The notes: generated by a model not told the origin, from the letters alone. Shown: positions 2,182 through 22,392, counted from the first letter of the stretch. The stretch is DNA of 64,000 bases from Dehalococcoidales bacterium (GCA_034418415.1 DAOULS010000080.1:8513-72512); one strand, 5' to 3'. Made by a program: numbers and translations.

Positions 2182-2196
2182 TAAGGAGAACAAAAA

Positions 2197-2793: not shown

Positions 2794-3311
2794 TGGCAGT
2801 AGTGTTTACCGAAACAGCCACACAAGAGCGGGAGCTGTATGTTGTGGGCATGGGCGAGATGGTAATAACGGACTCTCCCGATGCCGTGCTATCCTGCATC
2901 GGGCTGGGTTCTTGCGTTGCCGTGTGCGCCTATGATACACGCGAGAAAATCGGCGGTATGGCACACATCGTACTACCGCAGAATTACGGTATCCCCGGTA
3001 AAAGTGAGGCTAAATACGCCGATACTGCCGTGCCACTGCTGTTGAATGAAATGGCAAAGAAAGGCTGTATAAAAAGACGGCTGATTGTAAAAATCGCCGG
3101 CGGGGCCCAGATGACATTGGCCCCGGGGCTAAGAGATACCTTTAAAACCGGCGAGAGGAATCTGGAGCAAATAATGTCGGTGCTGCAGAAAGAAAATATT
3201 ACCCCGGCAGCGACCGATACGGGTGGAAGTATCGGGAGGACGGTAAAAATGTACGTGAGGACCGGGCGGGTTACGGTTAAGACCGCGTACGGCTCGGCCA
3301 AGGAAATTTAA
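2793..3311 (+). CDS. cheD: Chemoreceptor glutamine deamidase CheD
   Basis: TAATG overlap with cheC. CheD-like core GLGSCVAVC...GGMAHIVLP. Size of 172 aa is typical. Confidence 0.88.
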   Translation: MAVVFTETATQERELYVVGMGEMVITDSPDAVLSCIGLGSCVAVCAYDTREKIGGMAHIVLPQNYGIPGKSEAKYADTAVPLLLNEMAKKGCIKRRLIVKIAGGAQMTLAPGLRDTFKTGERNLEQIMSVLQKENITPAATDTGGSIGRTVKMYVRTGRVTVKTAYGSAKEI

Positions 3312-3363
3312 GAATGAATAATAATATCCCTAATAATATAACTACTGGGAAAAAGGAGATAAC

Positions 3364-3720
3364 ATGGCTACGGTAATGATTGTGGACGATGCAATGTTCA
3401 TGCGTAAAAAATGCGCGCAGGTTCTATCCCAAAACGGTTATGCCGTCGTCGAAGCTGCCAGCGGGGCGGAGGCACTAACAGCCTACCAGGAGGAAAAACC
3501 GGACTGCGTGCTGCTGGACATCACCATGCCGGATATGGACGGGATACAGGCGTTGAAAGAACTGCTTAAAGTCGACCCCAGCGCCAAGGTTTCAATGTGC
3601 AGTGCTATGGGACAGCAGGGTATTGTTATCGAAGCCTTAAAACTGGGGGCCAAGGATTTCGTCGTCAAACCGTTCGATGTTGCTAGGGTGATTGGTTCTG
3701 TTAAAAAGATGATAGGCTAA
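3364..3720 (+). CDS. cheY: Single-domain response regulator CheY
   Basis: 118-aa REC domain (IVDDA..., LLDITMPDMDG, VVKPF) with AAGGAG upstream, inside the che operon. Confidence 0.9.
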   Translation: MATVMIVDDAMFMRKKCAQVLSQNGYAVVEAASGAEALTAYQEEKPDCVLLDITMPDMDGIQALKELLKVDPSAKVSMCSAMGQQGIVIEALKLGAKDFVVKPFDVARVIGSVKKMIG

Positions 3721-3756
3721 TATCTCGGGATATTAAGGTTTTTGGGAGAAAAGCAG

Positions 3757-4803
3757 GTGCAGAAAAAAATACAAGTACTTGTTGTTGATGATTCCGGTTA
3801 CGTTATTACGGCAGTAACCAACCGACTTAATAGCGACCCGGATATTGAGGTTATCGACTCCGCCCGTAACGGTATCGAGGCCGTAGAAAAGGTCAAGAGC
3901 CTCAAGCCGGACGTGGTAACCATGGACGTCATCATGCCGGAGATGGACGGCATTGCCGCTTTGAAGGTAATTATGGAGGAATGCCCGACCCCGGTGGTAA
4001 TGCTTAGTGCGCTGACCAGCGAAAATGCAGAGACCACTCTGAAAGCGCTGGACATCGGCGCGGTTGATTTCTTTTTAAAACCTTCGGCTATCAATCCGGT
4101 GGCCGATGATACCCTGGCGGCAAAAATAAAGACGGCTGCCAGGAGTAAGCTCATCAAGAACGGACGTCACAAGGCGGACACTGATTCAAAGAAAAAGAGA
4201 ACAAGCCAGGAAAAAACTTCAACCTTTAAAAAGCTGGTGATTATCGGTGCTTCTACCGGTGGTCCCAGGTCATTAATGCAGATAGTTCCCGCAATTCCGG
4301 AAGACATTCCGGCGGCGTTTTTAATAGTCCAGCATCTTCCCCCCGTTTTCACACGGTCGCTGGCGGAGAGGCTGGACCAAGTATCTCAAATAGCGGTAGT
4401 AGAGGCGGAGGACGGGAGTGTTGCGCGTAAGGGCAGGATTTTGGTGGCTCCCGGTGATTACCATATGTTGATAGAAAGCGATGGCAGAATAAAGCTTGAC
4501 CAGGGCCCACATGTTCTGGGAGTACGGCCGGCGGTAGATGTAACCATGAAGTCGGCGGTGGCTAAATTCGGTGCGGCTGTCATCGGCGTTATCCTGACCG
4601 GCATGGGTATCGATGGGACCCAGGGGGCTTCTTATATCAAAGCCGCTGGCGGCAAGGTCATTGCCCAGGACGAAGCCACCAGCGCGGTGTACGGCATGCC
4701 GATGAGCGTGGCAAAGGCCGGTTTTACCGACCAGATATTGCCTTTAGAAAAAATAGCGGATGGGATAATTGATGCTTGCGTTGCCAGGGAGAAAGTCGCA
4801 TGA
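3757..4803 (+). CDS. cheB: Protein-glutamate methylesterase CheB (REC + esterase)
   Basis: REC domain plus CheB esterase domain (IGASTGGP...). The ORF track starts at TTG 3742. I prefer GTG 3757 because GGGAGAA lies 6 nt upstream. Confidence 0.9.
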   Translation: MQKKIQVLVVDDSGYVITAVTNRLNSDPDIEVIDSARNGIEAVEKVKSLKPDVVTMDVIMPEMDGIAALKVIMEECPTPVVMLSALTSENAETTLKALDIGAVDFFLKPSAINPVADDTLAAKIKTAARSKLIKNGRHKADTDSKKKRTSQEKTSTFKKLVIIGASTGGPRSLMQIVPAIPEDIPAAFLIVQHLPPVFTRSLAERLDQVSQIAVVEAEDGSVARKGRILVAPGDYHMLIESDGRIKLDQGPHVLGVRPAVDVTMKSAVAKFGAAVIGVILTGMGIDGTQGASYIKAAGGKVIAQDEATSAVYGMPMSVAKAGFTDQILPLEKIADGIIDACVAREKVA

Positions 4804-5633
4804 ATGCGGAAGAGTTCAATTATTTAAAAAAGAGAATACGCAAATTAACCCAGTTCGACCTTGATAATTACGGTCATAACCAGATGATTCGGCGTCTGGA
4901 CGGCTATATTATGCGGTTTAAAGTGCGGAATGTGGTGCAGTACTGCAAACTAATCGAGCGGGATAAACACGAACTGGAGAAGCTGAAGAAGTTTCTTACT
5001 ATAAACGTGTCCGAGTTTTTCCGGGATGCCGTTCAGTTTAGACTGCTGCAGGAAGAAATATTACCGTCGTTACTGAAGAAGAATCTCGGACTTAATATCT
5101 GGAGCGCCGGTTGTTCCAACGGGGCTGAAGCGTATTCGGTAGCCATGCTCCTGGACAGGCTGTCTCCCTACAGAAAGCACCGGATAATGGCAACGGACAT
5201 TGACAAGGTCATCCTGGACCATGCGGCAGCCGGCGGGCCTTACGGCGCAGCCGAGGTAAGGAATGTACCGCCGGCGCTGCTGGAGAAATATTTTACTCAA
5301 GATGACGGTGCTTTTCGGGTGGTTAGCCGGATTCGGGATAAAGTCAACTTCGGACTGCATGACCTGACACGCGACCGGTTCGAGAATGATTTCGACCTTA
5401 TAATATGCCGCAACGTGGTGATTTACTTCTCCGGTGAGACCAAGAAAATATTAAGGAAAAAATTCCTGGATTCTCTGAAAGAGAACGGGATACTTTTTAT
5501 CGGCGCCACCGAGACGATGCTGGATGCCAGGGACAATGGATTTCAGCGTCTCTCGGCGTGCTTTTACAGGAAAAAGTCGGGTGTGCCTGAAAAAATCGAG
5601 GCGCCGCTGGCCGTCAGCAGGGGTACAAAATGA
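4800..5633 (+). CDS. cheR: Chemotaxis protein methyltransferase CheR
   Basis: CheR N-terminal and SAM-binding regions (FFRD..., IWSAGCSNGAEAYS). ATG 4800 forms an ATGA overlap with the cheB stop. The track start at 4776 would overlap cheB. Confidence 0.92.
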   Translation: MNAEEFNYLKKRIRKLTQFDLDNYGHNQMIRRLDGYIMRFKVRNVVQYCKLIERDKHELEKLKKFLTINVSEFFRDAVQFRLLQEEILPSLLKKNLGLNIWSAGCSNGAEAYSVAMLLDRLSPYRKHRIMATDIDKVILDHAAAGGPYGAAEVRNVPPALLEKYFTQDDGAFRVVSRIRDKVNFGLHDLTRDRFENDFDLIICRNVVIYFSGETKKILRKKFLDSLKENGILFIGATETMLDARDNGFQRLSACFYRKKSGVPEKIEAPLAVSRGTK

Positions 5634-8431: not shown

Positions 8432-9358
8432 ATGAAAAGAAAATTACTGTTTTCAATTCTGCTTCTGGCGGCGTTATTGTTATCGGTTTCAGGGTGTACC
8501 GTAGCGGCTAATCAGCATATGCCCCTGGTCCTGCTGACCGATTTCGGCACCGATGACTACCGCGTGCCCAGGCTCAAGGGTGTGATTTACGATACCTATC
8601 CCGATGCGCAGGTAATCGATGCTACTCACGGCATTGCGTCCTTTGATATCGCCGCCGGCGCCTATGTACTCGGGCTGACGGCCAAGGAGTTCCCGGGGGG
8701 ATTCGTGTTCATCGCCTCCGTCGGGGCCCACAGCACCGCCGAGGAAAAGTCGCTGGTATTGACCAATAACAAGGACCAGATTTTCGTGGCGCCGGATAAC
8801 GGACTGCTTACCTATATTATTAAAGAGATGGGCGTTAAGTCGGTATATGAGGTCTCCAACCAGGCGCTTTTCGACCAGCCCATTTCAACCCTGCCTTTCC
8901 ATTATTTGCTGGGCAAAGTCGGGGCGCTGATTGCCTCCGGCTATGATCCGGCGGATATCGGGCCGCCGGTTGCCTCTACGGTGATGCTGGACATTCAGGA
9001 AGGCGGTATTAGCGACGGCAAGGTAGTCGGCTCGGTGGTGTTTATCGACCATTTCGGCAACTGCCTGACCAACATACCCGGCGACACCTTAAGCGAATAC
9101 GGACTGAAAATCGGGGATACCGTTCAGATAATCATCGATGGCAATACCATCGCGGCGCAGTACGGCGGGAACTACAGCGACGTTCCCGTAGGGGAGTGCG
9201 TTATTATCGTAAATTCGCTGGGAACGGTGCAGCTTTCGATAAACAAGGGCAGTTTCGCCGACTCTTACGGAATCAAGACGGGGATAAAAATCGAGCTTGG
9301 GTGGCAATATAGTTTCTTGGTGATTACAAGTACCAATTCAATTTTTCGGGTACTTTAA
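8432..9358 (+). CDS. SAM hydroxide adenosyltransferase family (DUF62; fluorinase/chlorinase-like fold) with a lipoprotein-type signal peptide
   Basis: Family N-terminal motif LVLLTDFGTDDYRVPRLKGVIYD, preceded by MKRKLLFSILLLAALLLSVSG-C. AGAGG RBS. Confidence 0.8.
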   Translation: MKRKLLFSILLLAALLLSVSGCTVAANQHMPLVLLTDFGTDDYRVPRLKGVIYDTYPDAQVIDATHGIASFDIAAGAYVLGLTAKEFPGGFVFIASVGAHSTAEEKSLVLTNNKDQIFVAPDNGLLTYIIKEMGVKSVYEVSNQALFDQPISTLPFHYLLGKVGALIASGYDPADIGPPVASTVMLDIQEGGISDGKVVGSVVFIDHFGNCLTNIPGDTLSEYGLKIGDTVQIIIDGNTIAAQYGGNYSDVPVGECVIIVNSLGTVQLSINKGSFADSYGIKTGIKIELGWQYSFLVITSTNSIFRVL

Positions 9359-9451
9359 TACATGATGAAAAGTCGCTATTGATTTTTTTTTAGACACTTG
9401 GTATTATTATACAAAAGTCCCAATGTACCAATATACCTCGACCTTTAGTAC

Positions 9452-9934
9452 ATGTTTGATAATCAGAAAGATATACACGTAAGAATCCCGAAAGAACTCT
9501 ACACCAAGCTAAAGGTCAAATGTGCCTATAACGGCAGTTCCATGCAGGACTATATAATCAGGCTGATGAACCAGGACATCCAGAGTCCGTCGAGAAAAAA
9601 GTCCGTATTGATAGTCGATGATGAAAAGACCATGCGCGAAGGCCTCCGCGACTGGCTCAAGGACAGCTATAACGTGACTACAGCCGAAACGGGTGAAGAG
9701 ACCATCGATATGGTGAAAAACCAGGAATTCGATGCCATGATTATCGACGTTAGACTGACAGGCAGAAGCGGCATCGATGTCCTGAAAGAGGTCAAACAGA
9801 TACAACCTAATATTAATTCCATTGTCATGACTGCCTATCCTTCGGTGGATACGGCCGTCGAGGCAATGAAAGCAGGCGCTATAGAATTCATTGTGAAGCC
9901 TTTTGCTCCGAGTCAACTTGAAAGGCTAATCTGA
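9452..9934 (+). CDS. Response regulator with an N-terminal ribbon-helix-helix-like DNA-binding segment (RHH-REC)
   Basis: N-terminus VRIPKELYTKLKVKCAYNGSSMQDYIIRLM resembles CopG/Arc RHH. It is followed by a REC domain (VLIVDDE, MIIDVRLTG, IVKPF). Confidence 0.8.
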   Translation: MFDNQKDIHVRIPKELYTKLKVKCAYNGSSMQDYIIRLMNQDIQSPSRKKSVLIVDDEKTMREGLRDWLKDSYNVTTAETGEETIDMVKNQEFDAMIIDVRLTGRSGIDVLKEVKQIQPNINSIVMTAYPSVDTAVEAMKAGAIEFIVKPFAPSQLERLI

Positions 9935-10020
9935 AGGCTCCCCCTGAAGCAACAATGAAGAATGGCGGAAAAGAGTAAGGATGCGAATGCGCGCGAAAGC
10001 AGGGACAAAGTGGTAAAAAA

Positions 10021-10060
10021 AGAGGTGAGATATTTAGTTCTCTCGCCTCTTTTGTTTTTG
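10021..10060 (+). terminator. Rho-independent terminator candidate
   Basis: AGAGGTGAGA (10021-10030) pairs with TCTCGCCTCT (10041-10050) as a 10-bp stem with one G-U pair. It is followed by TTTGTTTTTG. Confidence 0.55.
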
Positions 10061-10117
10061 TCTTTTCTATATTTATATCAAAAAGTGTCTTACGTTTCTA
10101 ATGTTAGGAGGTAAAGC

Positions 10118-13100
10118 ATGGAACCGAAAATAGGTGTGTATATCTGTGATTGCGGTTCGAACATTCTGGGCAAGGTGGATGTTCCCAAGGTCGTGGAGTA
10201 TATCCAGGGCCTGCCGACGGTGACCATCGCCCGCGAGTACAGGTTCATGTGTTCCGGTCCGGGACAGGACATGATTGAGCAGGACATCAAGGAGATGGGA
10301 CTCAACCGTGTGGTCGTTGCCTCGTGTTCACCGCAGATGCACGAACCGACCTTCCGCCGCCTGATGCAGCGGGCCGGACTTAATCCCTACCTGTTTGAAA
10401 TGGCGAACATCCGCGAGCACGCCTCCTGGGTGACCGATGACCCCGATGCTGCCACGGAAAAAGCCAAAGCCTTGGTAAGCGCTGCGGTCAGGAGGGTGTA
10501 TTACCAGGAACCTCTGGAAACGAGGGAAGTGCCGGTCAATCCCGATACCATAGTTGTCGGCGGCGGTGTCGCCGGAATCCAGGCGGCACTGGAAATCGCC
10601 GATTCCGGGCATAAGGTTTACCTGGTGGAAAGGGAGCCGAGCATCGGCGGGCACATGATTCAGCTGGACAAGACCTTCCCCACCCTCGACTGCTCCGCCT
10701 GTATCCTTACGCCGAAGATGACCCTGGCCGGTTCCCATCCGTTTATCGAGCTGATGACCTACAGCGAGGTGACCGAGGTCTCCGGCTTCATCGGCAACTT
10801 TACCGTGAAGATACGTAAGAAGCCAAGGTACATTGATGTCAATGAGTGCAACGGCTGTTCCGACTGCGAAAAGGTATGCCCGGTGACCGTGCCGTCCGAA
10901 TTCAATATGAAGCTGGACACGCGCAAAGCCGCCTACCGTCCCTTCCCGCAGGCCGTCCCCAGCGCCTACGTCATTGATAAGCAGGGGAAGTCGCCGTGCT
11001 CGTTTACCTGCCCCGCCGGCGTCAATGCTCACGGCTATGTAGCGCTAATCTCGGAAGGCAAGTTCAAGGAAGCTATCGAAGTCCTGCGGCGCACCATGCC
11101 TTTTGCCGGGGTCTGCGGGCGGGTCTGCACCCATCCCTGCGAAGCCGAGTGCGAGCGGGGCAAAGTTGACGAGCCCATAGCAATAAGGGCTCTAAAGCGG
11201 TTCATGGCCGACTATGAAATGAAGAACGGACGTGAGAAAGCCGCGCCCGCGGAAATAACCAAGAAGGAAAAAATCGCCGTCGTCGGCTCCGGTCCCGCCG
11301 GGCTCGCCTGCGCTTACGACCTGGTGAAAGCCGGCTATCCGGTGACGGTCTTCGAGGCTGCTGATAAGGCCGGTGGTATGCTGCGCTACGGGATACCGGA
11401 ATACCGCCTGCCCAAGAGCATCCTCGATAGCGAGATTGACTATGTTAAAGAGCTTGGCGTTGAGATAAAGACTAAAACTGCTGTTACCGATATTGACGAG
11501 CTCAAGAAGCAGGGCTACAAGGCGGTGTTCCTGGCTAACGGCGCCTGGGTAAGTCAGAAGATGAACATCCCCGGCGAAGATGCCAAGGGAGTGATGCACG
11601 CCATCGAGTTCCTGAAACAGGCAAGCGAGGGCAAGAAAGTCGAACTCGGCAGCAAGGTTGCCGTGGTCGGCGGCGGTAATGCGGCCGTCGATGCCGCCCG
11701 TACGGCGTTGCGCCTGGGCGCTAAAGAGGTCAGCATTATTTACCGCCGTTCCCGGGCGGAAATGCCGGCTATTGCCAGTGAAATCGATGAAATGGAAGAG
11801 GAAGGCGTGACGATACGCTATCTGACCAATCCCGTTGAGGTAATCGCCGCCGACGGCAAGCTGAAAAAAGTCAAGTGCATCAAGATGGAGCTGGGCGAGC
11901 CGGATGCCTCCGGACGCCGTCGTCCGGTGCCGATTGAAGGGTCGGAATTTGAGTTGGAAATCGATACCCTGATTATGGCTATCGGCCAGGCGGTCAATAA
12001 ATCGATGCTGCCCGGTAATGTCCAATATTCCAAGTCCGGCACCGTTAACGCCGATGAGATAACCTTCGAGACCAGTGTCAAGGGGGTGTTCGCGGGTGGC
12101 GATGTCGTGGCCGGCCCGGCTACGGTTATCGAGGCGATTGCCGCCGGCAAGGAAGCCGCCATCTCCATCGACAGATACATACAGGGCGCCGATATGAAAG
12201 AAGGGCGACCCGAGGAAAAAGAGCGCGTCAAGGACGTAAACAAGGAGGGCGTCGCCAAGCAGCCGAGGGCGACCATGTCCAAGCTGCCTGTGGGCGAAAG
12301 GACAAAGTCGTTTAAGGAAGTGGAGGCGGGACTCGACGAGAAAGCGGCTATCGAAGAAGCCAGCCGCTGCCTTAACTGCGCCGTCTGCTCTGAATGCTTG
12401 CTGTGTGTCTCCGCCTGCGAGCGAAACGCCGTGAGGCACGACATGAAAGAGGAAATCGTCGAGGTCAACGTCGGCAACATCGTGCTGGCGACGGGGTACA
12501 AGGAGTTCGACCCCTCCGTGATACAGAATTACGGCTACGGGCGACTGGATAATGTCATTACCGGTCTGGAGTTCGAGCGTATGGTCAACTCCGCCGGTCC
12601 CACCAGCGGCAAGATACTGCTGAAGAACGGCGAGGAGCCGAAGAGCGTCGCCATTGTCCACTGTGTGGGCAGCCGCGATATCAATTACCACGAATACTGC
12701 TCGTCGGTCTGCTGTATGTACTCGCTCAAGTTTTCACACCTGCTTAGAGAGCACCTGCCCGAGGCGGAAATCTATGAGTTTTACATCGATATCCGCGCGC
12801 CGCGTAAGGGCTTCGAAGAGTTTTATAACCGCATCCTGAGGGAAGGAACGATTCTCTACCGCGGCCGTCCCGGTGAAATCACCGACGTACCGGAAACACC
12901 TTATGAGGAGGGTAAACTAATCGTCAAGTTTGAGAATACCCTCATCGGTGAAAAGGAGCGCCTGCCGGTCGATATGGTGATTCTTAGCTCCGCCCTGGAG
13001 CCCCATGAAGACTCCCGCGAGGTCGCTCGGATATTCAATATCAGCTGCGGCGAAGGAGACTTCTTCATCGAGAGGCATCCCAAGCTCGACCCGGTGGCGA

Positions 13101-13462
13101 CGATGACGGAAGGCGTTTTCATCGCCGGCTGCTGTGAAAGTCCCAAGGACATACGGGACAGCGTCGCCCAGGCTTCGGCCGCGGCGGCCAGGGTACTCGC
13201 CCTCATCAGCAAAGGCAAGGTGGAAACCGAAGCTACCATCGCGGAAATCGATGAGGAGCAGTGCTCCGGGTGCCGGGTTTGCAACCTGCTCTGTCCCTAT
13301 GGAGCGATAACCTACGACGAAGAAAAGAAGGTATCAAAAATCAACGACGCCATCTGTAAGGGCTGTGGGGCTTGTGTAGCCGCCTGCCCGAGTTCGGCCA
13401 TCAAGCATAAGCACTACACCACGCAAGAAATAATGGCGCAAATCGAGGGAATTCTGGTCTAG
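10118..13462 (+). CDS. hdrA: Giant HdrA-like flavoprotein with an inserted GltD/NfnB-like NAD(P)H module (HdrL-type)
   Basis: HdrA N-terminal domain (IGVYICDCGSNI), FAD site (VVGGGVAGIQAALE) and HdrA core (VAIVHCVGSRD, GVFIAGCC). C-terminal 2x[4Fe-4S] motifs (CSGCRVCNLLCP, CKGCGACVAACP). Between them lies a glutamate-synthase-small-subunit-like block (CGRVCTHPCEAECERG, VVGSGPAGLACAYDL, VVGGGNAAVDAAR, GVFAGGDVV). Confidence 0.9.
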   Translation: MEPKIGVYICDCGSNILGKVDVPKVVEYIQGLPTVTIAREYRFMCSGPGQDMIEQDIKEMGLNRVVVASCSPQMHEPTFRRLMQRAGLNPYLFEMANIREHASWVTDDPDAATEKAKALVSAAVRRVYYQEPLETREVPVNPDTIVVGGGVAGIQAALEIADSGHKVYLVEREPSIGGHMIQLDKTFPTLDCSACILTPKMTLAGSHPFIELMTYSEVTEVSGFIGNFTVKIRKKPRYIDVNECNGCSDCEKVCPVTVPSEFNMKLDTRKAAYRPFPQAVPSAYVIDKQGKSPCSFTCPAGVNAHGYVALISEGKFKEAIEVLRRTMPFAGVCGRVCTHPCEAECERGKVDEPIAIRALKRFMADYEMKNGREKAAPAEITKKEKIAVVGSGPAGLACAYDLVKAGYPVTVFEAADKAGGMLRYGIPEYRLPKSILDSEIDYVKELGVEIKTKTAVTDIDELKKQGYKAVFLANGAWVSQKMNIPGEDAKGVMHAIEFLKQASEGKKVELGSKVAVVGGGNAAVDAARTALRLGAKEVSIIYRRSRAEMPAIASEIDEMEEEGVTIRYLTNPVEVIAADGKLKKVKCIKMELGEPDASGRRRPVPIEGSEFELEIDTLIMAIGQAVNKSMLPGNVQYSKSGTVNADEITFETSVKGVFAGGDVVAGPATVIEAIAAGKEAAISIDRYIQGADMKEGRPEEKERVKDVNKEGVAKQPRATMSKLPVGERTKSFKEVEAGLDEKAAIEEASRCLNCAVCSECLLCVSACERNAVRHDMKEEIVEVNVGNIVLATGYKEFDPSVIQNYGYGRLDNVITGLEFERMVNSAGPTSGKILLKNGEEPKSVAIVHCVGSRDINYHEYCSSVCCMYSLKFSHLLREHLPEAEIYEFYIDIRAPRKGFEEFYNRILREGTILYRGRPGEITDVPETPYEEGKLIVKFENTLIGEKERLPVDMVILSSALEPHEDSREVARIFNISCGEGDFFIERHPKLDPVATMTEGVFIAGCCESPKDIRDSVAQASAAAARVLALISKGKVETEATIAEIDEEQCSGCRVCNLLCPYGAITYDEEKKVSKINDAICKGCGACVAACPSSAIKHKHYTTQEIMAQIEGILV

Positions 13463-13494
13463 GTCCGGTGTAATAGACCTGGAAAGGGGAAAAT

Positions 13495-14073
13495 ATGGAA
13501 ACGGAAACCATCAAAGAAGCCAAGACATTCGTTGATGAAGTGGCCGCCGAGCCCGGCGGAGAAAAGATTAACGAATGTATCCAGTGCGGGGTATGCAGCG
13601 GCTCCTGCCCGACCGTAGAATGGTGGCAATACCCGCCGCGAAAAATCATCGCCATGATACGGGCCGGGAAGCGGGACATGGTGCTTTCCAGCACCTCCGC
13701 TTTTAACTGTGTCACCTGCTATTCCTGCACGGTACGCTGCCCCCGGAACATCAACCCCACCCAGCTGATTCATGCCGTCGAAGCCATCGCCGAGCGTGAG
13801 GGTTATAAGCCGAAAACCCCGACCCTGACGCTGCATCGGGGCTTACGTGACGCGATGAAGCAGGGGCGTGTCTGGGAATTAAGCCTGGCAATGCTTTTCT
13901 ACCTGAAAACCAGTTTGATAGAAGGGATGAAAATGCTGCCGGTAGCCTGGGACCTGATATCCCGCGGTCTGATGCCGATTTTACCGCCTAAACGGACCAG
14001 GAAAGGCGGCAAAGAGGTCACGGCTATCGTGAAGGCGGTCGAGGCAATGCAAAAGAGCGGAGGTGCCAAATGA
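13495..14073 (+). CDS. hdrC: Heterodisulfide reductase subunit C-like
   Basis: Two ferredoxin-type motifs, CIQCGVCSGSCP and CVTCYSCTVRCP. Typical size and position. Confidence 0.85.
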   Translation: METETIKEAKTFVDEVAAEPGGEKINECIQCGVCSGSCPTVEWWQYPPRKIIAMIRAGKRDMVLSSTSAFNCVTCYSCTVRCPRNINPTQLIHAVEAIAEREGYKPKTPTLTLHRGLRDAMKQGRVWELSLAMLFYLKTSLIEGMKMLPVAWDLISRGLMPILPPKRTRKGGKEVTAIVKAVEAMQKSGGAK

Positions 14074-14960
14074 AAGAATACACTTATTTCCCCGGCTGTG
14101 CCATGGCGAGCACCGGGAAGCCGATTCAGGCATCCATGGATGCGGTTTGTGAGGTGCTGGGTATAGAACTCAAGGAGCTCGATGACTGGACATGCTGCGG
14201 CTGCCCTGGTGAATCGATTAACGAGCTGGCGGCAGTCGCCATCGCCACACGCAATCTGGCACTGGCGGAAAAAAGCGGTCTCGATATGGTTACGGCTTGC
14301 AGCTGCTGCTACCGGAACCTGCTGGCCGCCCACGTGACCTATACCGAAGACCCCAGAATCAGGGAACAGGTCAAGAAAGCCCTGGCGGCAACCAACCTGG
14401 AATATAACGGCACTTTACGCGTCAGAAACTTGGTTGACGTATTCGTCAACGATATCGGTCTTGATGTGATTGCTTCAAAAGTCCAGAGGAAATTGACCGG
14501 CCTGAAGGTCGCCAGCTATTACGGCTGCCACCAGTCGCGCCCTTACGGTCCGGACGACCATGAATTCCCTGTCTGGCAGGACCAGATAGTCGAAGCCCTC
14601 GGCGCCGAAACGGTCTTCTTCCCCTTGAAGGCTCAATGCTGCGGAGGCACGCAGCTTTTCAGTAACAAAAAGATGATTTACAAGCTGCTCTATAAAATCC
14701 TCGATAACGTTGAAGAGCACGGCGGCGAGTGCATTTCCAGCACGCTGTGCCCGCTGTGTTTCACCAACCTGGACGCCAATCAGGGGCGGATTAATAACCG
14801 TGTGGGCAAGAAATTTGATATGCCGGTGCTGGCTTTGACGCAGCTCATGGGCATCGCTTTCGGCTTGAGTCCCAGCGAGCTCGGGTTTAACAAGAATATC
14901 TCCCCGGCCCTTAGAGCGGTTAAACCATATTTGAAGGTACCGGCACAGGAGGTATCGTAA
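14070..14960 (+). CDS. hdrB: Heterodisulfide reductase subunit B-like (two CCG domains)
   Basis: CCG-domain cysteines (WTCCGCPG..., CSCCY, QCCGG). ATGA overlap with hdrC. Confidence 0.88.
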
Positions 14961-15391
14961 TGAGTTGGGAACCGAAGATTGTAGGATTTTTGTGTAACTG
15001 GTGCTCTTATCGCGGCGCCGACCTGGCGGGTACATCGCGGATGCATTTCGCGCCCAACGTGAAAGTAATCAGGGTGCCCTGCAGTACCAGGGTGGAACCG
15101 TCTTTCGTGGTAAAAGCCTTTCAGTCGGGTGCCGACGGCGTGCTTATCCTGGGTTGCCATCCGGGGGACTGCCATTATATTGAAGGAAATTACAAGACAA
15201 TGCGGCGCATGCCGCTGTTAAAGAAAATGCTCAAGCAATTCGGCATTGAACCTGAAAGAGTCCGCCTGGACTGGGTATCCGCTTCTGAAGGTGAGAAATA
15301 CGCCAATGTCGTCAATGAAATGACGGAGAAGGTCAGGGAACTCGGACCGTTCAGGTCGAATAACGGGGAGGGTCAACATGGCAAAAATTAA
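14960..15391 (+). CDS. mvhD: Methyl-viologen-reducing hydrogenase delta subunit MvhD
   Basis: [15 protein letters not shown] ... GCHPGDCHY family signature. Start overlaps the hdrB stop (TAATG). Confidence 0.9.
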
Positions 15392-16337
15392 ACTGGCACT
15401 GTACTGGGCCTCCAGCTGCGGCGGTTGTGAAATCGCCCAGCTCCAGATAGGTGAAAAACTCTTGAAACTAATAGAGGTAGCCGATATCGTTTTCTGGCCG
15501 GTGGCTATCGACGTGAAGTATAAAGACGTGGAAGCCATGCCGGATAAAAGTATCGATGTCTGCCTGTTCAATGGCGCCATCCGCACCTCGGAGCAGGAGC
15601 ACATGGCAAAAATGCTGCGCGATAAGTCAAAAATAATGATTGCCTACGGCGCCTGCGCCACTTACGGAGGCATTCCGGGTCTGGGTAACCTGTATAACCG
15701 TGAGTTGATTTTCAACCGGGCTTATCTGGAAACGCAGTCCACGGATAATGAAAAGAAGGTGACTCCCCAGACCAGTATTGACGTACCGGAAGGGAAGCTC
15801 TCTCTCCCTGAATTTTTCGATACCGTGAGAAGTCTGCCGCAAACGGTGGACGTGGACTTCATCATCCCAGGCTGTCCGCCGGAAGAAAAGACCACCTGGC
15901 TTGCCCTGGAAGCGCTGATTCAAAACAAGCTGCCGCCCAAGGGCTCGATAATTTCTCATAACGTCAAAGCGGTGTGCGATGATTGCCCCCGCACCAAGAA
16001 CGAAAAGAAGGTCAAGAAATTCTACCGTCCGTTCCAGGTCGAGACGGACCCGGAGGTCTGTCTGCTGGAGCAGGGGGTACTCTGCGCCGGGGTAGCCACT
16101 GCCGGCGGCTGCGATGCCATGTGCCCGAAAGCCAACATGCCCTGCACCGGATGCTATGGTCCGGTTAAGGGAGTTACCGACCAGGGGGTGCATTTTTTGA
16201 GCGCGGTGGCGTCGATAATCGATTCCACCGACCCCGAAGAAATTAACAAGATAATCGAGGATATTGCTGACCCGGCCGGCACGTTTTACAGGTACTCGCT
16301 GCCGGAATCGCTGTTAAGGAGGGCCAAGATATCATGA
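15378..16337 (+). CDS. mvhG: [NiFe] hydrogenase small subunit, Mvh/F420-non-reducing type
   Basis: N-terminal SSCGGCE proximal-cluster motif and further Cys clusters ([12 protein letters not shown]). Overlaps the mvhD end. Confidence 0.88.
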
Positions 16338-17797
16338 AGAAGATAACGATAGACCCGATAACCCGTCTCGAAGGCCACGGTAAGATAGAGATATTTCTGG
16401 ATGACAAGGGCGGGGTCGCTAATTCATATTTCCAGGTGCCGGAATTGAGAGGCTTTGAGAAGTTCGCCGAAGGTCGCAATTCCGACGATATGCCACAGAT
16501 TACCGAGAGGATATGCGGCGTCTGCCCGGAAGCGCACCACCTGGCTTCGACCAAAACACTTGATGCCCTCTACCACGTCGACCCGCCCCCGACAGCTAGA
16601 AAACTACGTGAAATTTTCTACGATGCCTTCTATGTAACCGACCATACCACGCATTTCTACATCCTGGGCGGCCCGGACTTTGTCATGGGGCCCGATGCCC
16701 CGGTAGCCGAGCGCAATATTATCGGCGTTATCGGCAAGGTGGGGCTGGAACTGGGTGGGGCTGTTATCAAAGCCCGCATGCGGAATCACCATGTCATCGA
16801 GTTGATTGGCGGCAGGGGTGTTCACCCTGTCTTCGGTCTGCCCGGCGGCGTCAGCAAAAGCATTAATGAAGAAGAAAGAAAAGAAATCGAGGAAATTGCC
16901 AAGGAGTCGATAGAGTTCGGCAAGCTGTCGCTGAAGGTCTTCGATGATATTGTTCTCAAGAACAAAGCCTATGTAGATATGATTGTCAGCGATGCTTATA
17001 CCCACAAGACCTACTATATGGGACTTGTGGATGAGAACAACAAAGCCAACTATTATGACGGCAAGGTCAGGGTAGTTGACCCCGAAGGCAAGGAATTTGC
17101 GAAGTTTGCTCCCGCCGAGTATCTCGACCATGTCGCCGAGCATGTTGAGCCGTGGTCCTATATCAAGTTCCCCTTCCTGAAGAAGGTGGGGTGGAAGGGA
17201 TTTGTGGATGGCAAGGACAGCGGTGTCTTCCGCGTAGCGCCGCTCGCCAGGCTCAACGCCGCCGACGGTATGTCGACCCCGCTGGCACAGGAACACTACG
17301 AGAAATTCTACGAGACCCTCGGCGGTAAGCCGGTACACCATACGCTGGCGATGCACTGGGCACGCCTTATCGAGCTGCTTAATGCCGCAGAACACATGCT
17401 GGAGCTGATTCGCGACCCTGACATTACCAGTCCTGAAATACGCACTATCCCCGATAAGACTCCCGATGAAGGCGTAGGAATCGTGGAGGCGCCCCGGGGT
17501 ACGCTTATCCACCACTATATCACCGATGAAAAGGGCGTGATTCAAAAGGCAAACCTGATTGTAGCTACGGTCAACAACGGCGCCGCCGTCAATATGTCGA
17601 TAGGTAAAGCGGCCAAGGCGGTTATCCAGCCCGGTAAGGAAATCACCGAGGGCATCCTCAACCGGGTAGAGATGGCCTGGCGTCCCTACGACCTCTGCCT
17701 TGCCTGCGCTTCGCATGATTTGAATGGCCCTTCACCGGTGCCGATTTACGTGTACGACAGCCAGAAAAATCTGGTGAAGAAACTGGGTGGAGATTAA
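16334..17797 (+). CDS. mvhA: [NiFe] hydrogenase large subunit, Mvh type
   Basis: N-terminal RICGVCPEAHH and C-terminal DLCLACASH Ni-binding motifs, with a C-terminal tail after the His. ATGA overlap with mvhG. Confidence 0.92.
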   Translation: MKKITIDPITRLEGHGKIEIFLDDKGGVANSYFQVPELRGFEKFAEGRNSDDMPQITERICGVCPEAHHLASTKTLDALYHVDPPPTARKLREIFYDAFYVTDHTTHFYILGGPDFVMGPDAPVAERNIIGVIGKVGLELGGAVIKARMRNHHVIELIGGRGVHPVFGLPGGVSKSINEEERKEIEEIAKESIEFGKLSLKVFDDIVLKNKAYVDMIVSDAYTHKTYYMGLVDENNKANYYDGKVRVVDPEGKEFAKFAPAEYLDHVAEHVEPWSYIKFPFLKKVGWKGFVDGKDSGVFRVAPLARLNAADGMSTPLAQEHYEKFYETLGGKPVHHTLAMHWARLIELLNAAEHMLELIRDPDITSPEIRTIPDKTPDEGVGIVEAPRGTLIHHYITDEKGVIQKANLIVATVNNGAAVNMSIGKAAKAVIQPGKEITEGILNRVEMAWRPYDLCLACASHDLNGPSPVPIYVYDSQKNLVKKLGGD

Positions 17798-17872
17798 GTC
17801 GCTTTAAAAAGTTTATTAGCAATCATTGATGGTATATAATAGAGAATCAATATAACCTGCTATGCGGTTTAA

Positions 17873-19075
17873 ATGGTTGCTAATATGTATAGTCGCTGGC
17901 TGAAAACGCTAAAGAGCCCGCATTTATGGGTGGTTGTAGTCCTGTTTGCGGTGGGTATTATCCTTCACTACCCGCAGCAGATACTCGCGACGGATTCAAC
18001 CTCTCTGTTTTCCTTCCTCGGTCTTAGCCGCCACGCCGTAGAGCGCATTTTCCTATTATTGCCGATTGGCTATGCCGGATTCTTTATCGGTACGCGGGCG
18101 GGACTGGTAAGCCTGGTATTGACCGCCGCCATCATGCTGCCGCGTGTCTTCGTGATATCGCAGTTTTTTGCCGACGCTTTGTTCGAGACTATCGGGGTAA
18201 TCGTCATCGGCGCTCTCGTGGTTCTATGGATTTACTACGATAGAAAAGGAAAGGAACAAAAACAGCAGATTCTCGCAAACCTCGAGGAATCCAACAGTAA
18301 GCTGGAGGCGATGTTAAAGGCTCTGGAAACGAACCACCGGCGGCTTAAGGAGACTCAGGCGCAGGTAATCCAGGCGGAGAAACTTACGTCGCTGGGGCAG
18401 CTGGCGGCATCCATCGCTCACGAAATCAATAATCCTCTATCCGGTACACTGGTTTACACCCAGCTGCTGGCCAGGAAGGTCGAGAGAGGCGAAGCCGATA
18501 ATGAAGTTACCCTCGACTACCTGACCAAAATGGAATCCGAGCTTGTCCGTAGTACTAAACTGGTACAGAACCTGCTCAATTTTGCCCTCCAGTCGACGCC
18601 GGAATATCAGCCGGTTAACATGAATACCGTTGTCAATCATGCCCTGGACCTGGTATCGCACTCGGTTGAGGAGCAGGAGATACGGGTCTTCAATGAGCTC
18701 GACCCCTCATTGCCGGAAATCATGGCCGACCCCGGTCAGCTTCAGCAGGTCTGTCTTAGTCTGATAATCAATGCCGTTCAGGCCATGCCCCAGGGAGGCA
18801 GACTGACCTTGCGTACCTATGTCAGCAATTCCAAAGTCAAGCTGGAGGTGCAGGATACCGGAACGGGAATTCCTCCGGAAAATATCGGCAAGCTCTTTAC
18901 TCCCTTTTTCAGCACCAAGGCGGACGTAAAGGGGGTCGGGCTGGGGCTGGCGGTAGCCTACGGCATTATCCACCGGCATAAGGGCAGGATAGAAGCCCAC
19001 AGCAAACTGGGGGAGGGCTCAACATTTACGGTTACGATGCCACTGTCAGAGGGGTCGCTTGAAAAAGACGGCTAA
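17873..19075 (+). CDS. Membrane sensor histidine kinase
   Basis: About four N-terminal TM helices, a coiled coil, H-box SIAHEINNPL, and N/G boxes (LIINAVQAM, DTGTGI, GVGLGL). Confidence 0.88.
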   Translation: MVANMYSRWLKTLKSPHLWVVVVLFAVGIILHYPQQILATDSTSLFSFLGLSRHAVERIFLLLPIGYAGFFIGTRAGLVSLVLTAAIMLPRVFVISQFFADALFETIGVIVIGALVVLWIYYDRKGKEQKQQILANLEESNSKLEAMLKALETNHRRLKETQAQVIQAEKLTSLGQLAASIAHEINNPLSGTLVYTQLLARKVERGEADNEVTLDYLTKMESELVRSTKLVQNLLNFALQSTPEYQPVNMNTVVNHALDLVSHSVEEQEIRVFNELDPSLPEIMADPGQLQQVCLSLIINAVQAMPQGGRLTLRTYVSNSKVKLEVQDTGTGIPPENIGKLFTPFFSTKADVKGVGLGLAVAYGIIHRHKGRIEAHSKLGEGSTFTVTMPLSEGSLEKDG

Positions 19076-19222
19076 TCATGTATGTTCCGGTCCCGCCTGT
19101 AATTTATAGTTGAATATCTGTTAAAATATAGGGTTGAATAAACGCTATTGATGGTTTCTGGATATGCAGCTTGATTAATCCGGTTATTAAACGATGGAGA
19201 TAGCCGTCGGGAGGTTGAAATT

Positions 19223-20569
19223 ATGGAACAGACTTTTATAGGACTGACGATAAAGCAGATAATCATTGCCCTGGTCATAATCGTGGTTTTTTGCGGGCTG
19301 GCATGGTTTATACGGTTCGCATTAGAAAAATGGGGTAAAAGATTTACGGAAAAGACTCGCACTAAACTGGATGATGCCATTCTATCGGTGATGCGGAAAC
19401 CCGTTATCATCATTATCGTCCTGCTGGGCTTTTACATAGCGGTGGTGACTCTGCCGCAGAGTGAAGCTGTATGGTCGTACACATTGAAAGGACTGGCCAC
19501 GGCGCTTAGCCTGCTGGGTATTTTTTCCGCCGTCGCTTTACTCGATACCATCATCAGGTGGTACCGTCGTAGGGCTACCGCAGAAAAAACCGGTGTAGGT
19601 TTGAGTATGCGCCTGGTAACTCTCTGCTGGGTAGTAATGATACTGGCGGCTATCTGGCTGGCGGTGATGGCCGTATTGAGTATCTGGGGGATGAATGTCA
19701 GTATCGTAACCGGCTGGCTCGGTGAATACGGCTGGCGCATTGCGCTTATCGTCGGTATTGCCGTGCTGGCTATCATCAGTGTTGGAGAAATTATCCCGAG
19801 AGTGGTGGTACGGACCTTAACCCGCCGACCTGGAGAAAGAAAAGACGAGGTCAAAAAAAGAAGCGACACTCTGGCTAAGGTGCTAGTCAGTACCAGCCAG
19901 GTTTTTATAGTATTCATCGCTATCTTTATGATTCTTTCCGAGCTACAGATAGATATCGCGCCTATCCTGGCCGGTGCCGGCGTCGTGGGTATCGCTATCG
20001 GTTTTGGTGCTCAAGGCTTGATCAGGGACCTAGTAGCGGGCTTTTTTGTCATCATAGAAAACCAGTACCGTGTCGGTGACATTGTTAAAATCGCCGACGT
20101 CGGCGGTATCGTCGAAAGCATAAATCTAAGAAGGACTGTGCTTAGAGACCTCGACGGTGTTGTTCATGTTGTACCTAACGGTGAAATCCGGGTGGCTAAT
20201 AATATGACCAAAGAACTATCAAGGGTGAATTTTAACGTCAGTGTGGGGTATGGGGAAGATTTGGACCATGTGATTAGCGTAATCAACCGGGTTGGTCAAG
20301 AACTTGCTGAAGATCCTGAATGGAAGGAAGTTGTTCTTAGTGCGCCTAAGGTATTGAGAGTAGATAATTTTGGCGATTCAGGTATTGATATCAGGGTAGC
20401 TGGGGATACGCAGCCGATGCGCCAGTGGGATGTAGCCGGCCAGCTTCGGTTGAGATTGAAGAGAGAGTTCGATAAAGAGGGTATTGAAATCCCCTGGCCT
20501 CACACCAAGTTGTATTTCGGCAATGCGCTGCCGGCGCCTGATTCCGGGAAAAAAGCCAAAGATAAATAA
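19223..20569 (+). CDS. Mechanosensitive ion channel (MscS family)
   Basis: Multiple TM helices followed by the MscS beta-domain core (FFVIIENQYRVGDIVKI...G.VE.I.LR.T.LRDLDG...VPNG). Confidence 0.88.
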   Translation: MEQTFIGLTIKQIIIALVIIVVFCGLAWFIRFALEKWGKRFTEKTRTKLDDAILSVMRKPVIIIIVLLGFYIAVVTLPQSEAVWSYTLKGLATALSLLGIFSAVALLDTIIRWYRRRATAEKTGVGLSMRLVTLCWVVMILAAIWLAVMAVLSIWGMNVSIVTGWLGEYGWRIALIVGIAVLAIISVGEIIPRVVVRTLTRRPGERKDEVKKRSDTLAKVLVSTSQVFIVFIAIFMILSELQIDIAPILAGAGVVGIAIGFGAQGLIRDLVAGFFVIIENQYRVGDIVKIADVGGIVESINLRRTVLRDLDGVVHVVPNGEIRVANNMTKELSRVNFNVSVGYGEDLDHVISVINRVGQELAEDPEWKEVVLSAPKVLRVDNFGDSGIDIRVAGDTQPMRQWDVAGQLRLRLKREFDKEGIEIPWPHTKLYFGNALPAPDSGKKAKDK

Positions 20570-21045: not shown

Positions 21046-22392
21046 ATGAATAAAGTCGAAAAAGTCGTTGTTATAGGTTGTTCAGGCACCGGTGCACTGG
21101 CGGCGCGCATGCTAAAAAATCTTGCGCCCTCTGTGGATGTATCTATAATCAGGGAAGAGGAGGAGCCGGGCTTACTGACCAGATGCGCTACGCCGTATAT
21201 CTGTTTTGGGCATGTACTCACGGACCCTTCTTACAAAGATGATGGTATCTTCACCAAAGCCGGTATAAACCTGGTCAATATAAAAGCCGAAAAAATTGAT
21301 AGAAAACAGAAGATGGTAACCACTGCCGATGGTAAGGATTATTACTACGACAAACTGGTTCTGGCTACCGGGGCCAGGTCTGTAGTGCCTCCTATCCCGG
21401 GAGCCGAACTGCCCGGGGTTTTCACACTGCGTACGAGCGGTAGTGCCATTGATATTCTCCAGTGGTTGAATACCAAGCGGGTAAAGAGCCTGGTCCTGGT
21501 GGGCGGTGGTGCTATTAGTGTCGAGATTGCCTACCTGGCTAAACAGCATGGTATCAATGTGACAATGATAGAAATACTGGAGCATGTTCTATCAAAATCA
21601 TTGGACCCGGATATGAGCGAGGATGTGGAGAGCTACATGAAAGAGCAGGGTGTAGACCTGCGTTTAGGTGAACAGGTCAAGGAAATTAGCGGCAATGGAA
21701 AAGTCCAGGGCGTGTCACTGGCATCAGGTGAAAGAGTTAATGCGGATATGGTGATTATCTGTGTCGGGGCTGAACCTCGCAGTGAATTGGCTGAAAAAGC
21801 CGGGCTTGAAATGGGTGAACTGGGGTTGAAAGTCAACAAGTATCTGGGAACTTCCGACCCTGATATTTTTTCCGCAGGCGACCTTGTTCAGTATTCAAGT
21901 TTTATTACGGGTAAGCCGATAAGAGGACAGCTGCGACCTAACGCTGTAATTGGCGGCAGAATAATCGCTAAAAATATCCTCGGATACGGTATTGAATATC
22001 CTCCTCTCATTAACAGCTTCGCCACTAAATTCTTTGAGAAATCTATCGCCGGAACGGGCATCACCGAATCAGAGGCAGTAAATAACGGTATCAGTGCAGT
22101 CAGCTCAATACAGTCTTCGGCAAGTCAGCACTCTATGATGAGAAGCAGAAAACCCTATAAAATTAAGTTGATTTTCGATAAGGAAGATAAAAGAATTATC
22201 GGCGGACAGATTGTAAGCGATAGCGAATGCCCGATAAAGCATATTGATGCATTGGCCGTGGCTATAAGAGCGCGCTGGACTTCTCTCGATTTATCGACAT
22301 TGCGGTGCGCCGGCCAGCCGGAGTTATCCCCGGACCCGGGTATGGAACCGATAGCACTAGCTGCTGAAACCGTCGAAAAAATGTTAGGTTAG
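21046..22392 (+). CDS. FAD-dependent pyridine nucleotide-disulfide oxidoreductase (NADH oxidase / CoA-disulfide reductase-like)
   Basis: N-terminal dinucleotide fold (VVVIGCSGTGALAA), single redox Cys context (LTRCATPY), second Rossmann fold (LVGGGAISVE), and SAGD motif. Confidence 0.85.
   Translation: MNKVEKVVVIGCSGTGALAARMLKNLAPSVDVSIIREEEEPGLLTRCATPYICFGHVLTDPSYKDDGIFTKAGINLVNIKAEKIDRKQKMVTTADGKDYYYDKLVLATGARSVVPPIPGAELPGVFTLRTSGSAIDILQWLNTKRVKSLVLVGGGAISVEIAYLAKQHGINVTMIEILEHVLSKSLDPDMSEDVESYMKEQGVDLRLGEQVKEISGNGKVQGVSLASGERVNADMVIICVGAEPRSELAEKAGLEMGELGLKVNKYLGTSDPDIFSAGDLVQYSSFITGKPIRGQLRPNAVIGGRIIAKNILGYGIEYPPLINSFATKFFEKSIAGTGITESEAVNNGISAVSSIQSSASQHSMMRSRKPYKIKLIFDKEDKRIIGGQIVSDSECPIKHIDALAVAIRARWTSLDLSTLRCAGQPELSPDPGMEPIALAAETVEKMLG

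Follow-up and report, generated by a model that had tools for sequence, protein, structure and literature searches.

A conserved Hdr-[NiFe] hydrogenase operon from an uncultured Dehalococcoidales bacterium, with an NfnB-like, predicted NADP(H)-binding module inserted in HdrA

HdrABC, the heterodisulfide reductase, is widespread outside the methanogens, and the disulfide substrate and physiological reaction of these nonmethanogen enzymes are a long-standing question. Here, we describe one such system, the six-gene hdrACB-mvhDGA operon found in a 64,000-nucleotide (nt) stretch of DNA from an uncultured Dehalococcoidales bacterium (GCA_034418415.1, DAOULS010000080.1:8513-72512; this entire stretch is referred to below as the window). 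Its HdrA subunit carries an NfnB/NfnL-like insertion. In the methanogen Hdr complex, electrons reach the bifurcating flavin adenine dinucleotide (FAD) via the [2Fe-2S] cluster of MvhD; the high-potential electron passes from the HA4 cluster to HdrC and then to HdrB, and the low-potential electron is relayed by HA3, a shuttle cluster, to HA5 and HA6 in an inserted ferredoxin-like domain, which is the docking site for MvhB/FmdF (polyferredoxin) and the anticipated electron exit (PMC12350162).

Fusions of HdrA with a module of this kind have been reported from several groups of organisms. The name HdrL was given in 2009 to a fusion of HdrA with the small subunit of glutamate synthase (GltD) in Desulfobacterium autotrophicum, where, in the portion of that paper available to us, just mvhD is described after each hdrL (PMC2702500). 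In Syntrophobacter fumaroxidans, HdrL was seen in the proteome, and its gene cluster is without the catalytic MvhA (PMC5947623). In archaea, an NfnB-like insertion in the ferredoxin domain was reported in 2022 for HdrA9-11 of ANME-1 (PMC9012536), and a reaction was proposed in 2025 for the type III HdrA (class A10) of Bathyarchaeota, which clusters with mvhADG (PMC12054007). A homologous module is found in NfnABC, where a noncysteine Lys ligand is conserved, the NfnL-like FAD is nonbifurcating, and NADPH lies on the mid-potential path (PMC12018979). In Chloroflexi, hdrABC genes beside group 3c hydrogenases have been noted, with no mention of the insertion (bioRxiv 10.1101/2021.08.23.457424). 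Thus, the architecture and its association with mvhADG are already published for archaea and the fusion is known from sulfate reducers, so that the combination is not new in concept. We considered treating the system as already known on the strength of the archaeal precedent, yet the literature that we searched held no description of a Dehalococcoidales or Dehalococcoidia operon with the insertion.

The six genes form one unit on the plus strand of the window (positions 10118-17797), with open reading frames exactly as delineated in an earlier annotation of this DNA (the original prediction):

10118..13462, plus strand: hdrA with the insertion (HdrL / type III HdrA), 1114 amino acids (aa)
13495..14073, plus strand: hdrC with two [4Fe-4S] motifs, 192 aa (Pfam and NCBIfam)
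14070..14960, plus strand: hdrB with two CCG domains, 296 aa (Pfam, alignment to 5odc_B)
14960..15391, plus strand: mvhD, [2Fe-2S] connector subunit, 143 aa (Pfam FlpD, 8e-57; 5odc_D, 5e-52)
15378..16337, plus strand: mvhG, [NiFe]-hydrogenase small subunit, 319 aa (Pfam, NCBIfam, PDB match)
16334..17797, plus strand: mvhA, [NiFe]-hydrogenase large subunit, 487 aa (Pfam, motifs, 5odc_F)

Direct reading of the sequence shows start/stop overlaps at four of the five junctions: ATGA at hdrC/hdrB and at mvhG/mvhA, TAATG at hdrB/mvhD, and a 14-nt overlap (ATGGCAAAAATTAA), preceded by GGGGAGGG, at mvhD/mvhG. At the remaining junction, hdrA and hdrC are separated, in agreement with the original prediction, by a 32-nt spacer containing the ribosome-binding site GGAAAGGGG. 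The original prediction had ATGA or TAATG at every junction from hdrC onward, which is correct for three of them and incorrect for mvhD/mvhG; its conclusion that the genes are tightly packed stands despite this one wrongly described junction, and the single operon that it proposed is seen as one compact cluster with a terminator-like hairpin upstream (described below). Its suggestion that conservation of the gene order be examined was followed by tblastn searches with the six proteins against one genome per species (loci labeled L002 onward), and the identical order hdrL-hdrC-hdrB-mvhD-mvhG-mvhA was found in seven other Dehalococcoidia species-level genomes (L002-L006, L011, and L016). The six genes are a real, conserved operon in an uncultured Dehalococcoidales bacterium.

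For every subunit, the best match among solved structures lies in 5ODC, the Mvh-Hdr complex of Methanothermococcus thermolithotrophicus, or in one of its close relatives. HdrA matches 8rvu/5odc_A with an E value of ~1e-220 in two stretches, aa 2-289 and 753-1113; HdrB matches 5odc_B (E = 1e-48), MvhD matches 5odc_D (E = 5e-52), MvhG matches 5odc_E (E = 6e-65), and MvhA matches 5odc_F over its full length (E = 1e-120). Pfam and NCBIfam searches return the expected families for all six proteins. All of them score below the NCBIfam equivalog cut-offs (HdrA/B/C and VhuA/G/D), with scores of 838 versus a cut-off of 1100 for HdrA2, 203 versus 345 for HdrB, and 405 versus 800 for VhuA, so that, as judged from sequence, they are relatives of the methanogen enzymes and not certified equivalents.

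The six subunits are common to this locus and the methanogen MvhAGD-HdrABC complex (5ODC; also Elp-Hdr, 8RVU, and Fdh-Hdr-Fmd, 7BKB), and the HdrA core is colinear. All six [4Fe-4S] cysteine motifs of HdrA align with those of 5ODC HdrA, as do the bifurcating-FAD residues E820 and K871 (5ODC numbering, E356 and K409); across 39 homologues (67 to 88% identity), none of these positions varies. In HdrB, all ten cysteines of both CCG motifs, which in 5odc_B bind two noncubane [4Fe-4S] clusters, are present. The [NiFe] motifs are shared as well, with MvhA containing both Ni-binding cysteine pairs:

16508..16540, plus strand: N-terminal L1 Ni-binding motif of MvhA, R59-ICGVC-PEAHH (C61/C64)
17690..17716, plus strand: C-terminal L2 Ni-binding motif of MvhA, D453-LCLACASH461 (C455/C458)

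Together with MvhG and MvhD, these motifs identify the predicted hydrogenase as a member of group 3c [NiFe] (Mvh/Vhu type). MvhA extends 26 aa past the L2 motif, so a maturation endopeptidase is expected. A scan of the called genes at nt 118-61931 and of otherwise unannotated open reading frames found no Pfam match to a HycI-type protease or to DsrC, and within that scope the previously noted absence of a maturation protease and of a DsrC-like gene holds. What sets the locus apart from the methanogen complex is its bacterial host, the joining of hdrACB and mvhDGA in a single unit, the scores below the equivalog cut-offs, and the interruption of the ferredoxin exit domain by a predicted NADP(H) module of ~470 aa. 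The features of this part of HdrA are as follows:

10847..10882, plus strand: first Cys motif of the HdrA inserted ferredoxin domain, C244xxC247xxC250xxxC254P (sequence, alignment)
~10973..12385, plus strand: NfnB/NfnL-like insertion, aa 286-756, ~470 aa (Pfam, PDB matches, fold search)
11195..11197, plus strand: codon of K360, at a noncysteine cluster ligand position (alignments to NfnB/NfnABC chains)
11285..11302, plus strand: FAD dinucleotide motif G390SGPAG (sequence, homologue alignment)
11669..11755, plus strand: NAD(P)H site, from G518GGNAA (GxGxxA) through Y542RRSR (sequence, homologue and PDB alignments)
12365..12418, plus strand: junction RC751LNC754, followed by the HdrA ferredoxin motif 2, C757xxC760xxC763xxxC767 (sequence, alignment)

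The insertion comprises two [4Fe-4S] sites, an FAD site, an NADP(H) site, a linker, and a C-terminally placed RCLNC motif; Pfam recognizes Fer4_20 and Pyr_redox_2 in it. Its eight cluster cysteines (residues 294, 298, 333, 337, 341, 345, 751, and 754), the FAD and NAD(P)H motifs, and K360 are invariant in the same 39 homologues. The full GltD/NfnB-like module of the original prediction, with two [4Fe-4S] motifs and FAD and NAD(P)H sites, is therefore intact, and careful alignment found both of its glycine motifs in place. The range originally assigned to it (10990..12200) covers the NfnB core; the true extent is ~10973-12385, since the insertion takes in the RCLNC cluster motif at its C terminus.

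The insertion sits within the inserted ferredoxin domain of HdrA and parts its two Cys motifs. When aa 286-754 were deleted in silico, the remaining 645 residues aligned end to end with the HdrA of M. marburgensis (residues 2-644 of the deleted form versus 11-653; E = 2e-224), and the sole gap at the excision point was of 3 residues, from "PFPQAVP" to the second ferredoxin motif. In PDB searches, the insertion matches 9bov_A (5e-139), 9n5u_A (1e-135), 8oh5_C (4e-114), and 4ylf_B (3e-106), as well as 5jca_L; the alignment to 9bov begins within the first ferredoxin motif (query 245-760 versus 9bov 55-571). Foldseek aligned the insertion to 9bov_A, the root-mean-square deviation (rmsd) being 3.3 Å over 478 columns at 47% identity. 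For 4ylf_B, the fold search gave a target-normalized TM-score of 0.79 and an rmsd of 2.6 Å; the rmsd was 6.7 Å for 9n5u_A, 2.6 Å for the NAD(H)-bound 9n5v_A, and 5.4 Å for 8oh5_C. The domain-level and structural alignments proposed along with the original prediction thus confirm the NfnB fold of the insertion and the colinearity of the HdrA core. In an AlphaFold2 model of HdrA built from the 39-sequence alignment, the insertion has a pLDDT of ~80-92, with an overall mean pLDDT of 68 and a pTM of 0.52. With only the insertion confident, the full-length model was dropped for domain packing and cluster distances and served for domain folds alone.

By sequence, the layout of this HdrA is that of type III A10, with the N- and C-terminal HdrA domains both kept. 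The type III proteins of Bathyarchaeota and ANME-1 are likewise HdrA1-type proteins, complete except that an NfnB/GltD-like domain of ~500 aa interrupts the inserted ferredoxin domain; the equivalents of K409 and E356 are conserved in both, and the clustering with mvhADG is shared with Bathyarchaeota. The two differ in host, bacterial (Dehalococcoidales) here, in the disulfide, which cannot be taken here to be coenzyme M-coenzyme B heterodisulfide (CoM-S-S-CoB), and in the nucleotide site: for the archaeal type III proteins, GXGXXG is reported and NAD+ inferred (PMC12054007), whereas the present HdrA has GxGxxA followed by YRRS, an NADPH-type site. The GxGxxA type is also found in the aligned NADPH-using NfnB, NfnL, and StnC chains. 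Given this site and the similarity to NADPH-using relatives, we favor NADP(H) as the nucleotide.

The label "HdrL-type," originally applied by analogy with sulfate reducers, is apt if taken broadly, to mean HdrA with an added GltD-like module (PMC2702500), although the host belongs to Dehalococcoidales and the layout is that of type III A10. The HdrL of sulfate reducers shares the HdrA/GltD-type fusion and the association with mvhD, which lies here three genes downstream of hdrA in the same operon; this comparison rests on the published descriptions. The sulfate-reducer origin of the DNA raised by the label was rejected, as the closest relatives, with 93% identity and full synteny, are Dehalococcoidales metagenome-assembled genomes (MAGs).

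In both sequence and fold, the insertion comes closest to the NfnL-like domains of NfnA/StnC in the Bfu-type NfnABC/Stn enzymes (9BOV, 9N5U, and 8OH5; 41 to 47% identity). Both have the RCLxC motif after the module, in a circularly permuted arrangement compared to NfnB, and a ferredoxin-type Cys motif before it, and both show the Lys signature at the ligand position along with an NADPH-type site. They differ in that the NfnABC/Stn module feeds a HydB-type flavin mononucleotide "flavobicluster," whereas the present one would be wired to the HdrA FAD, and in C333, which is present in HdrL and missing from the NfnABC/Stn proteins. With NfnB/NfnL of NfnAB/NfnSL (4YLF and 5JCA), the insertion shares the fold, two [4Fe-4S] sites, FAD, and the NADPH site. 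Here, however, the position of the Glu that is the fourth ligand to the FAD-proximal cluster is taken by Lys (K360 sits in AIRALKRF, aligned with LKRF or LKSF in 9bov, 9n5u, and 8oh5 and with LERF in 4ylf and 5jca), and the RCLxC motif, which is at the N-terminal start of NfnB/GltD, closes the module at its C terminus (RC751LNC754).

At a probability of roughly one-half, we read the operon as encoding HdrA(L)BC-MvhDGA, a soluble complex of the Mvh-Hdr type with flavin-based electron bifurcation, in which NADP(H) replaces ferredoxin and the added module is nonbifurcating. H2 would enter through MvhA, MvhG, and MvhD, in the methanogen fashion, and HdrCB would reduce a bacterial disulfide. The last cluster ligand of the module, C754, and the first ligand of ferredoxin motif 2, C757, are three residues apart, and from this spacing we infer that the outer cluster of the module must adjoin the HA5/HA6 pair. 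That cluster, which faces ferredoxin in NfnB, would be held against the HdrA ferredoxin domain as a built-in ferredoxin, so that the predicted chain runs from the bifurcating FAD through (HA3), HA5, HA6, the two NfnL clusters, and the NfnL FAD to NADP(H).

Because the module splits the inserted ferredoxin domain, the ferredoxin/polyferredoxin exit of methanogens, NADP(H) probably takes the place of ferredoxin, leaving three partners: H2/H+, NADP+/NADPH, and disulfide/dithiol. Four redox partners had been proposed originally, which would make the NADP(H) module an extra branch of a complex on which free ferredoxin is still reduced. All cysteines are kept in both ferredoxin-type domains of HdrA, and NfnB-type modules do contact ferredoxin in NfnAB, as such an arrangement would require. 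Nevertheless, it is very unlikely, with the module spliced into the domain whose surface serves ferredoxin/polyferredoxin for docking and exit and its outer cluster (the ferredoxin site of NfnB) covalently held against the HdrA cluster; the model in PMC12054007 likewise predicts blocked ferredoxin access.

The Lys-type ligand, a signature of the nonbifurcating NfnABC/Stn class, leads us to read the module as a simple NADP(H) port and not as a second site of bifurcation. Two bifurcating flavins in series, the NfnL-like FAD (as in NfnAB/NfnSL) and the HdrA FAD, have been suggested for the HdrA-NfnB fusions of ANME-1 (PMC9012536); R430, the Arg of GIPEYRLP, is conserved in homologues, and the insertion is 46% identical to the bifurcating NfnB of T. 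maritima. We find such a double bifurcation highly improbable here, as the ligand is Lys (NfnABC type) and not Glu (NfnSL type), the closest matches are nonbifurcating NfnABC modules, and the Pfam domains of the operon proteins and of the called genes at 118-61931 include no NfnA/NfnS-type partner ([2Fe-2S] plus a second FAD), although no search was aimed at it.

For the complex with a simple NADP(H) port, the least certain step is the overall reaction, which could be written as 2 H2 + NADP+ + R-S-S-R' <-> NADPH + H+ + RSH + R'SH. This direction keeps the methanogen polarity, and the reaction may be reversible. Disulfide-coupled reduction of NADP+ would make sense because the transfer of electrons from H2 to NADP+ is uphill at the low H2 pressures of sediment and soil.

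The distribution of these genes bears on the role of the hydrogenase. Among metagenomic sequences, full-length homologues of this HdrA form at least 120 clusters (1110 to 1120 aa, 67 to 93% identity), and the named close homologues belong to Dehalococcoidales, Dehalococcoidia, or Chloroflexota. Beyond the seven genomes with the identical order, L013 has a permuted one (hdrC-hdrB-hdrL-mvhD-mvhG), L014 has hdrL-hdrC-hdrB-mvhD with no mvhG or mvhA after mvhD, and L007, L009, L010, and L018 have hdrL and hdrCB with no adjacent hydrogenase. In a numerous sister clade (67 to 68% identity; L028-L031), hdrL-hdrC-hdrB is followed by unrelated genes. In a search across 1.84 billion cluster representatives, the junction signature C-x2-C-x2-C-x2-C-x2-C-x3-C was counted in 91 of the best 150, which fall into length classes of ~900, ~1100, and ~1300-1500 aa; the ~1500-aa representatives have the same signature but differ from the present HdrA in being without the N-terminal HdrA domain and ~400 aa longer. 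Named members of this wider set come from Dehalogenimonas sp. WBC-2, Thorarchaeota, Heimdallarchaeota/Hodarchaeales, Thermoleophilia, and Pseudomonadales MAGs. As far as sequence data indicate, the HdrA/NfnB-like fusion is widespread, with HdrL-HdrCB as the conserved core and MvhDGA as an add-on in the present sublineage.

Two of these loci, L014 and L016 (10001-13343 in both), have hdrL in two overlapping reading-frame pieces; they are MAGs of one project (MFD isolates), and the splits are probably assembly indels and not pseudogenes. In L006, a peat Dehalococcoidia MAG, a second set, hdrC-hdrB-hdrA-mvhD with an insertion-free HdrA of 666 aa, directly follows mvhA of the operon (10384-14247).

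Several observations weigh against an H2-driven, disulfide-coupled reduction of NADP+. The occurrence of a sister clade without mvhDGA makes the hydrogenase accessory, so that the HdrL core must have other partners. The direction of electron flow is not set by the sequence, and the homologous module of NfnABC feeds mid-potential electrons in, which fits NADPH as a donor. HdrB scores 203 bits against the HdrB model and 199 bits against the MFR SdhE (quinone-side) model, below both cut-offs, and no disulfide substrate is identifiable. The AlphaFold2 model is poor outside the insertion, which makes interdomain geometry and cluster distances unusable, and the literature searched contains no biochemical study of any HdrL/type III member.

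The competing reading with NAD(P)H as the donor is the published hypothesis for the archaeal type III HdrA-mvhADG cluster (PMC12054007). NAD(P)H would be the mid-potential donor, passing electrons into the NfnL-like module and on across the inserted ferredoxin domain to the FAD of HdrA, which would bifurcate them to a disulfide (through HdrCB) and to protons (through MvhD-MvhG-MvhA), with evolution of H2. It agrees with NfnABC, in which the homologous module with the same Lys signature and a nonbifurcating FAD is the entry point for NADPH, and, in the sister clade with hdrL-hdrCB only, the NADP(H) module can be the sole dedicated port besides HdrB. However, this scheme swaps the HdrA branch roles relative to every solved Hdr structure, the transfer of electrons from NADPH to H2 requires no energetic coupling at environmental H2 pressures, and oxidant would be spent to vent H2, for which there is no obvious rationale without a known disulfide-regenerating reaction. 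We therefore regard it as unlikely.

The close HdrB scores also allow for a high-potential acceptor other than a disulfide, either a quinone (SdhE-type) or a protein thiol system such as thioredoxin. In Dehalogenimonas sp. WBC-2 (L032; CP011392.1, 7835-12740), a fused hdrCB (382 aa) and hdrL (1118 aa, 58% identity) are followed by a gene for a 105-aa thioredoxin with a WCGPC motif, which is missing from the gene table of the NCBI record; this cluster adjoins cdhC/cdhD/acsE genes. No thioredoxin gene was found beside hdrL in the other loci compared or in the window, and with adjacency in one genome only, thioredoxin was rejected as a general disulfide carrier and retained as a lead alone. As all ten CCG cysteines of HdrB align with those of the disulfide-reducing enzyme, a nondisulfide acceptor appears very doubtful. 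A CoA-disulfide-reductase/NADH-oxidase-family gene located 3 kb downstream of the operon (21046-22392) was dropped as a candidate: it is not syntenic in relatives and hence is probably unrelated to the operon.

A bolder variant of the H2-to-NADP+ scheme is a bacterial energy-coupling reaction as yet undemonstrated in any organism, in which electrons from trace H2 are bifurcated straight to NADP+, free ferredoxin playing no part, and to a new thiol/disulfide couple of Dehalococcoidia; in its more extreme form, the two flavins would be coupled bifurcation sites. We consider this variant quite unlikely. If true, it would provide abundant sediment and soil Chloroflexota with a dedicated route from H2 to NADPH and would point to a new "bacterial heterodisulfide." For the favored complex, in which NADP(H) replaces ferredoxin, the locus would bring together, on a single Hdr core, a hydrogenase arm with all its parts and a built-in NADP(H) port, and this in an uncultured bacterial lineage that is widespread. 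With its gene order conserved across several species-level genomes, it is well suited to heterologous expression or enrichment biochemistry, and the donor and acceptor branches could be told apart by comparing the clade that has mvhDGA with the one that lacks it. The locus itself does not reveal the substrate, and its value is that of a well-defined test case rather than a discovery.

The operon is flanked by regulatory genes, with the following features at its boundaries:

9452..9934, plus strand: response regulator gene, receiver domain only, upstream of the operon (Pfam Response_reg, 7e-29)
10018..10060, plus strand: terminator-like hairpin with a U-run between the response regulator gene and hdrA (fold energy)
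17873..19075, plus strand: HisKA/HATPase sensor kinase gene directly 3' of mvhA (Pfam; syntenic in relatives)

The upstream hairpin has 13 bp, a folding energy of -18.4 kcal/mol, and z = -4.1, with equally good folding in 0 of 200 shuffled sequences. It was detected by folding only and not by a promoter/terminator consensus scan, which was dropped, as its sites were no more common than in shuffled sequence (10 terminator-like matches at 9300-19300 on both strands versus a shuffled mean of 10.6). Folding of the 75 nt separating mvhA from the histidine kinase gene revealed no terminator-like structure; with no hairpin comparable to the upstream one after mvhA, the kinase may be part of the operon transcript. 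The response regulator and the kinase also flank the six-gene operon in six related genomes (L002-L005, L011, and L016), and this synteny suggests a dedicated two-component control of the operon. In L028, from the hydrogenase-free sister clade, three response regulators and a histidine kinase with an [FeFe]-hydrogenase-like domain (PF02906 and PF04060; 5886-7832, minus strand) are divergent to hdrL-hdrCB, the kinase lying beside hdrL at 8001; this kinase may serve to sense H2 or redox state.

Apart from a few single-nucleotide polymorphisms and an N-gap, contig CAZSRM010000006.1 (GCA_964609685.1) is near-identical to the window. An apparent difference of 155 nt between the two (L026, 12455-12609; window position ~35253) proved to consist, in the database record, of a scaffold gap of 100 Ns and a duplicated flank of 55 nt, both missing from the window. 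Given the polymorphisms and the difference in the scaffold gap, the window derives from a near-identical but different assembly.

Elsewhere in the window, a chemotaxis cluster (cheA, cheC, cheD, cheY, cheB, and cheR) is located upstream of the operon at 118-5633, and a gene for a 71-aa 2x[4Fe-4S] ferredoxin, which nothing ties to the complex, is found 44 kb from the operon, at 61638-61853 on the minus strand.

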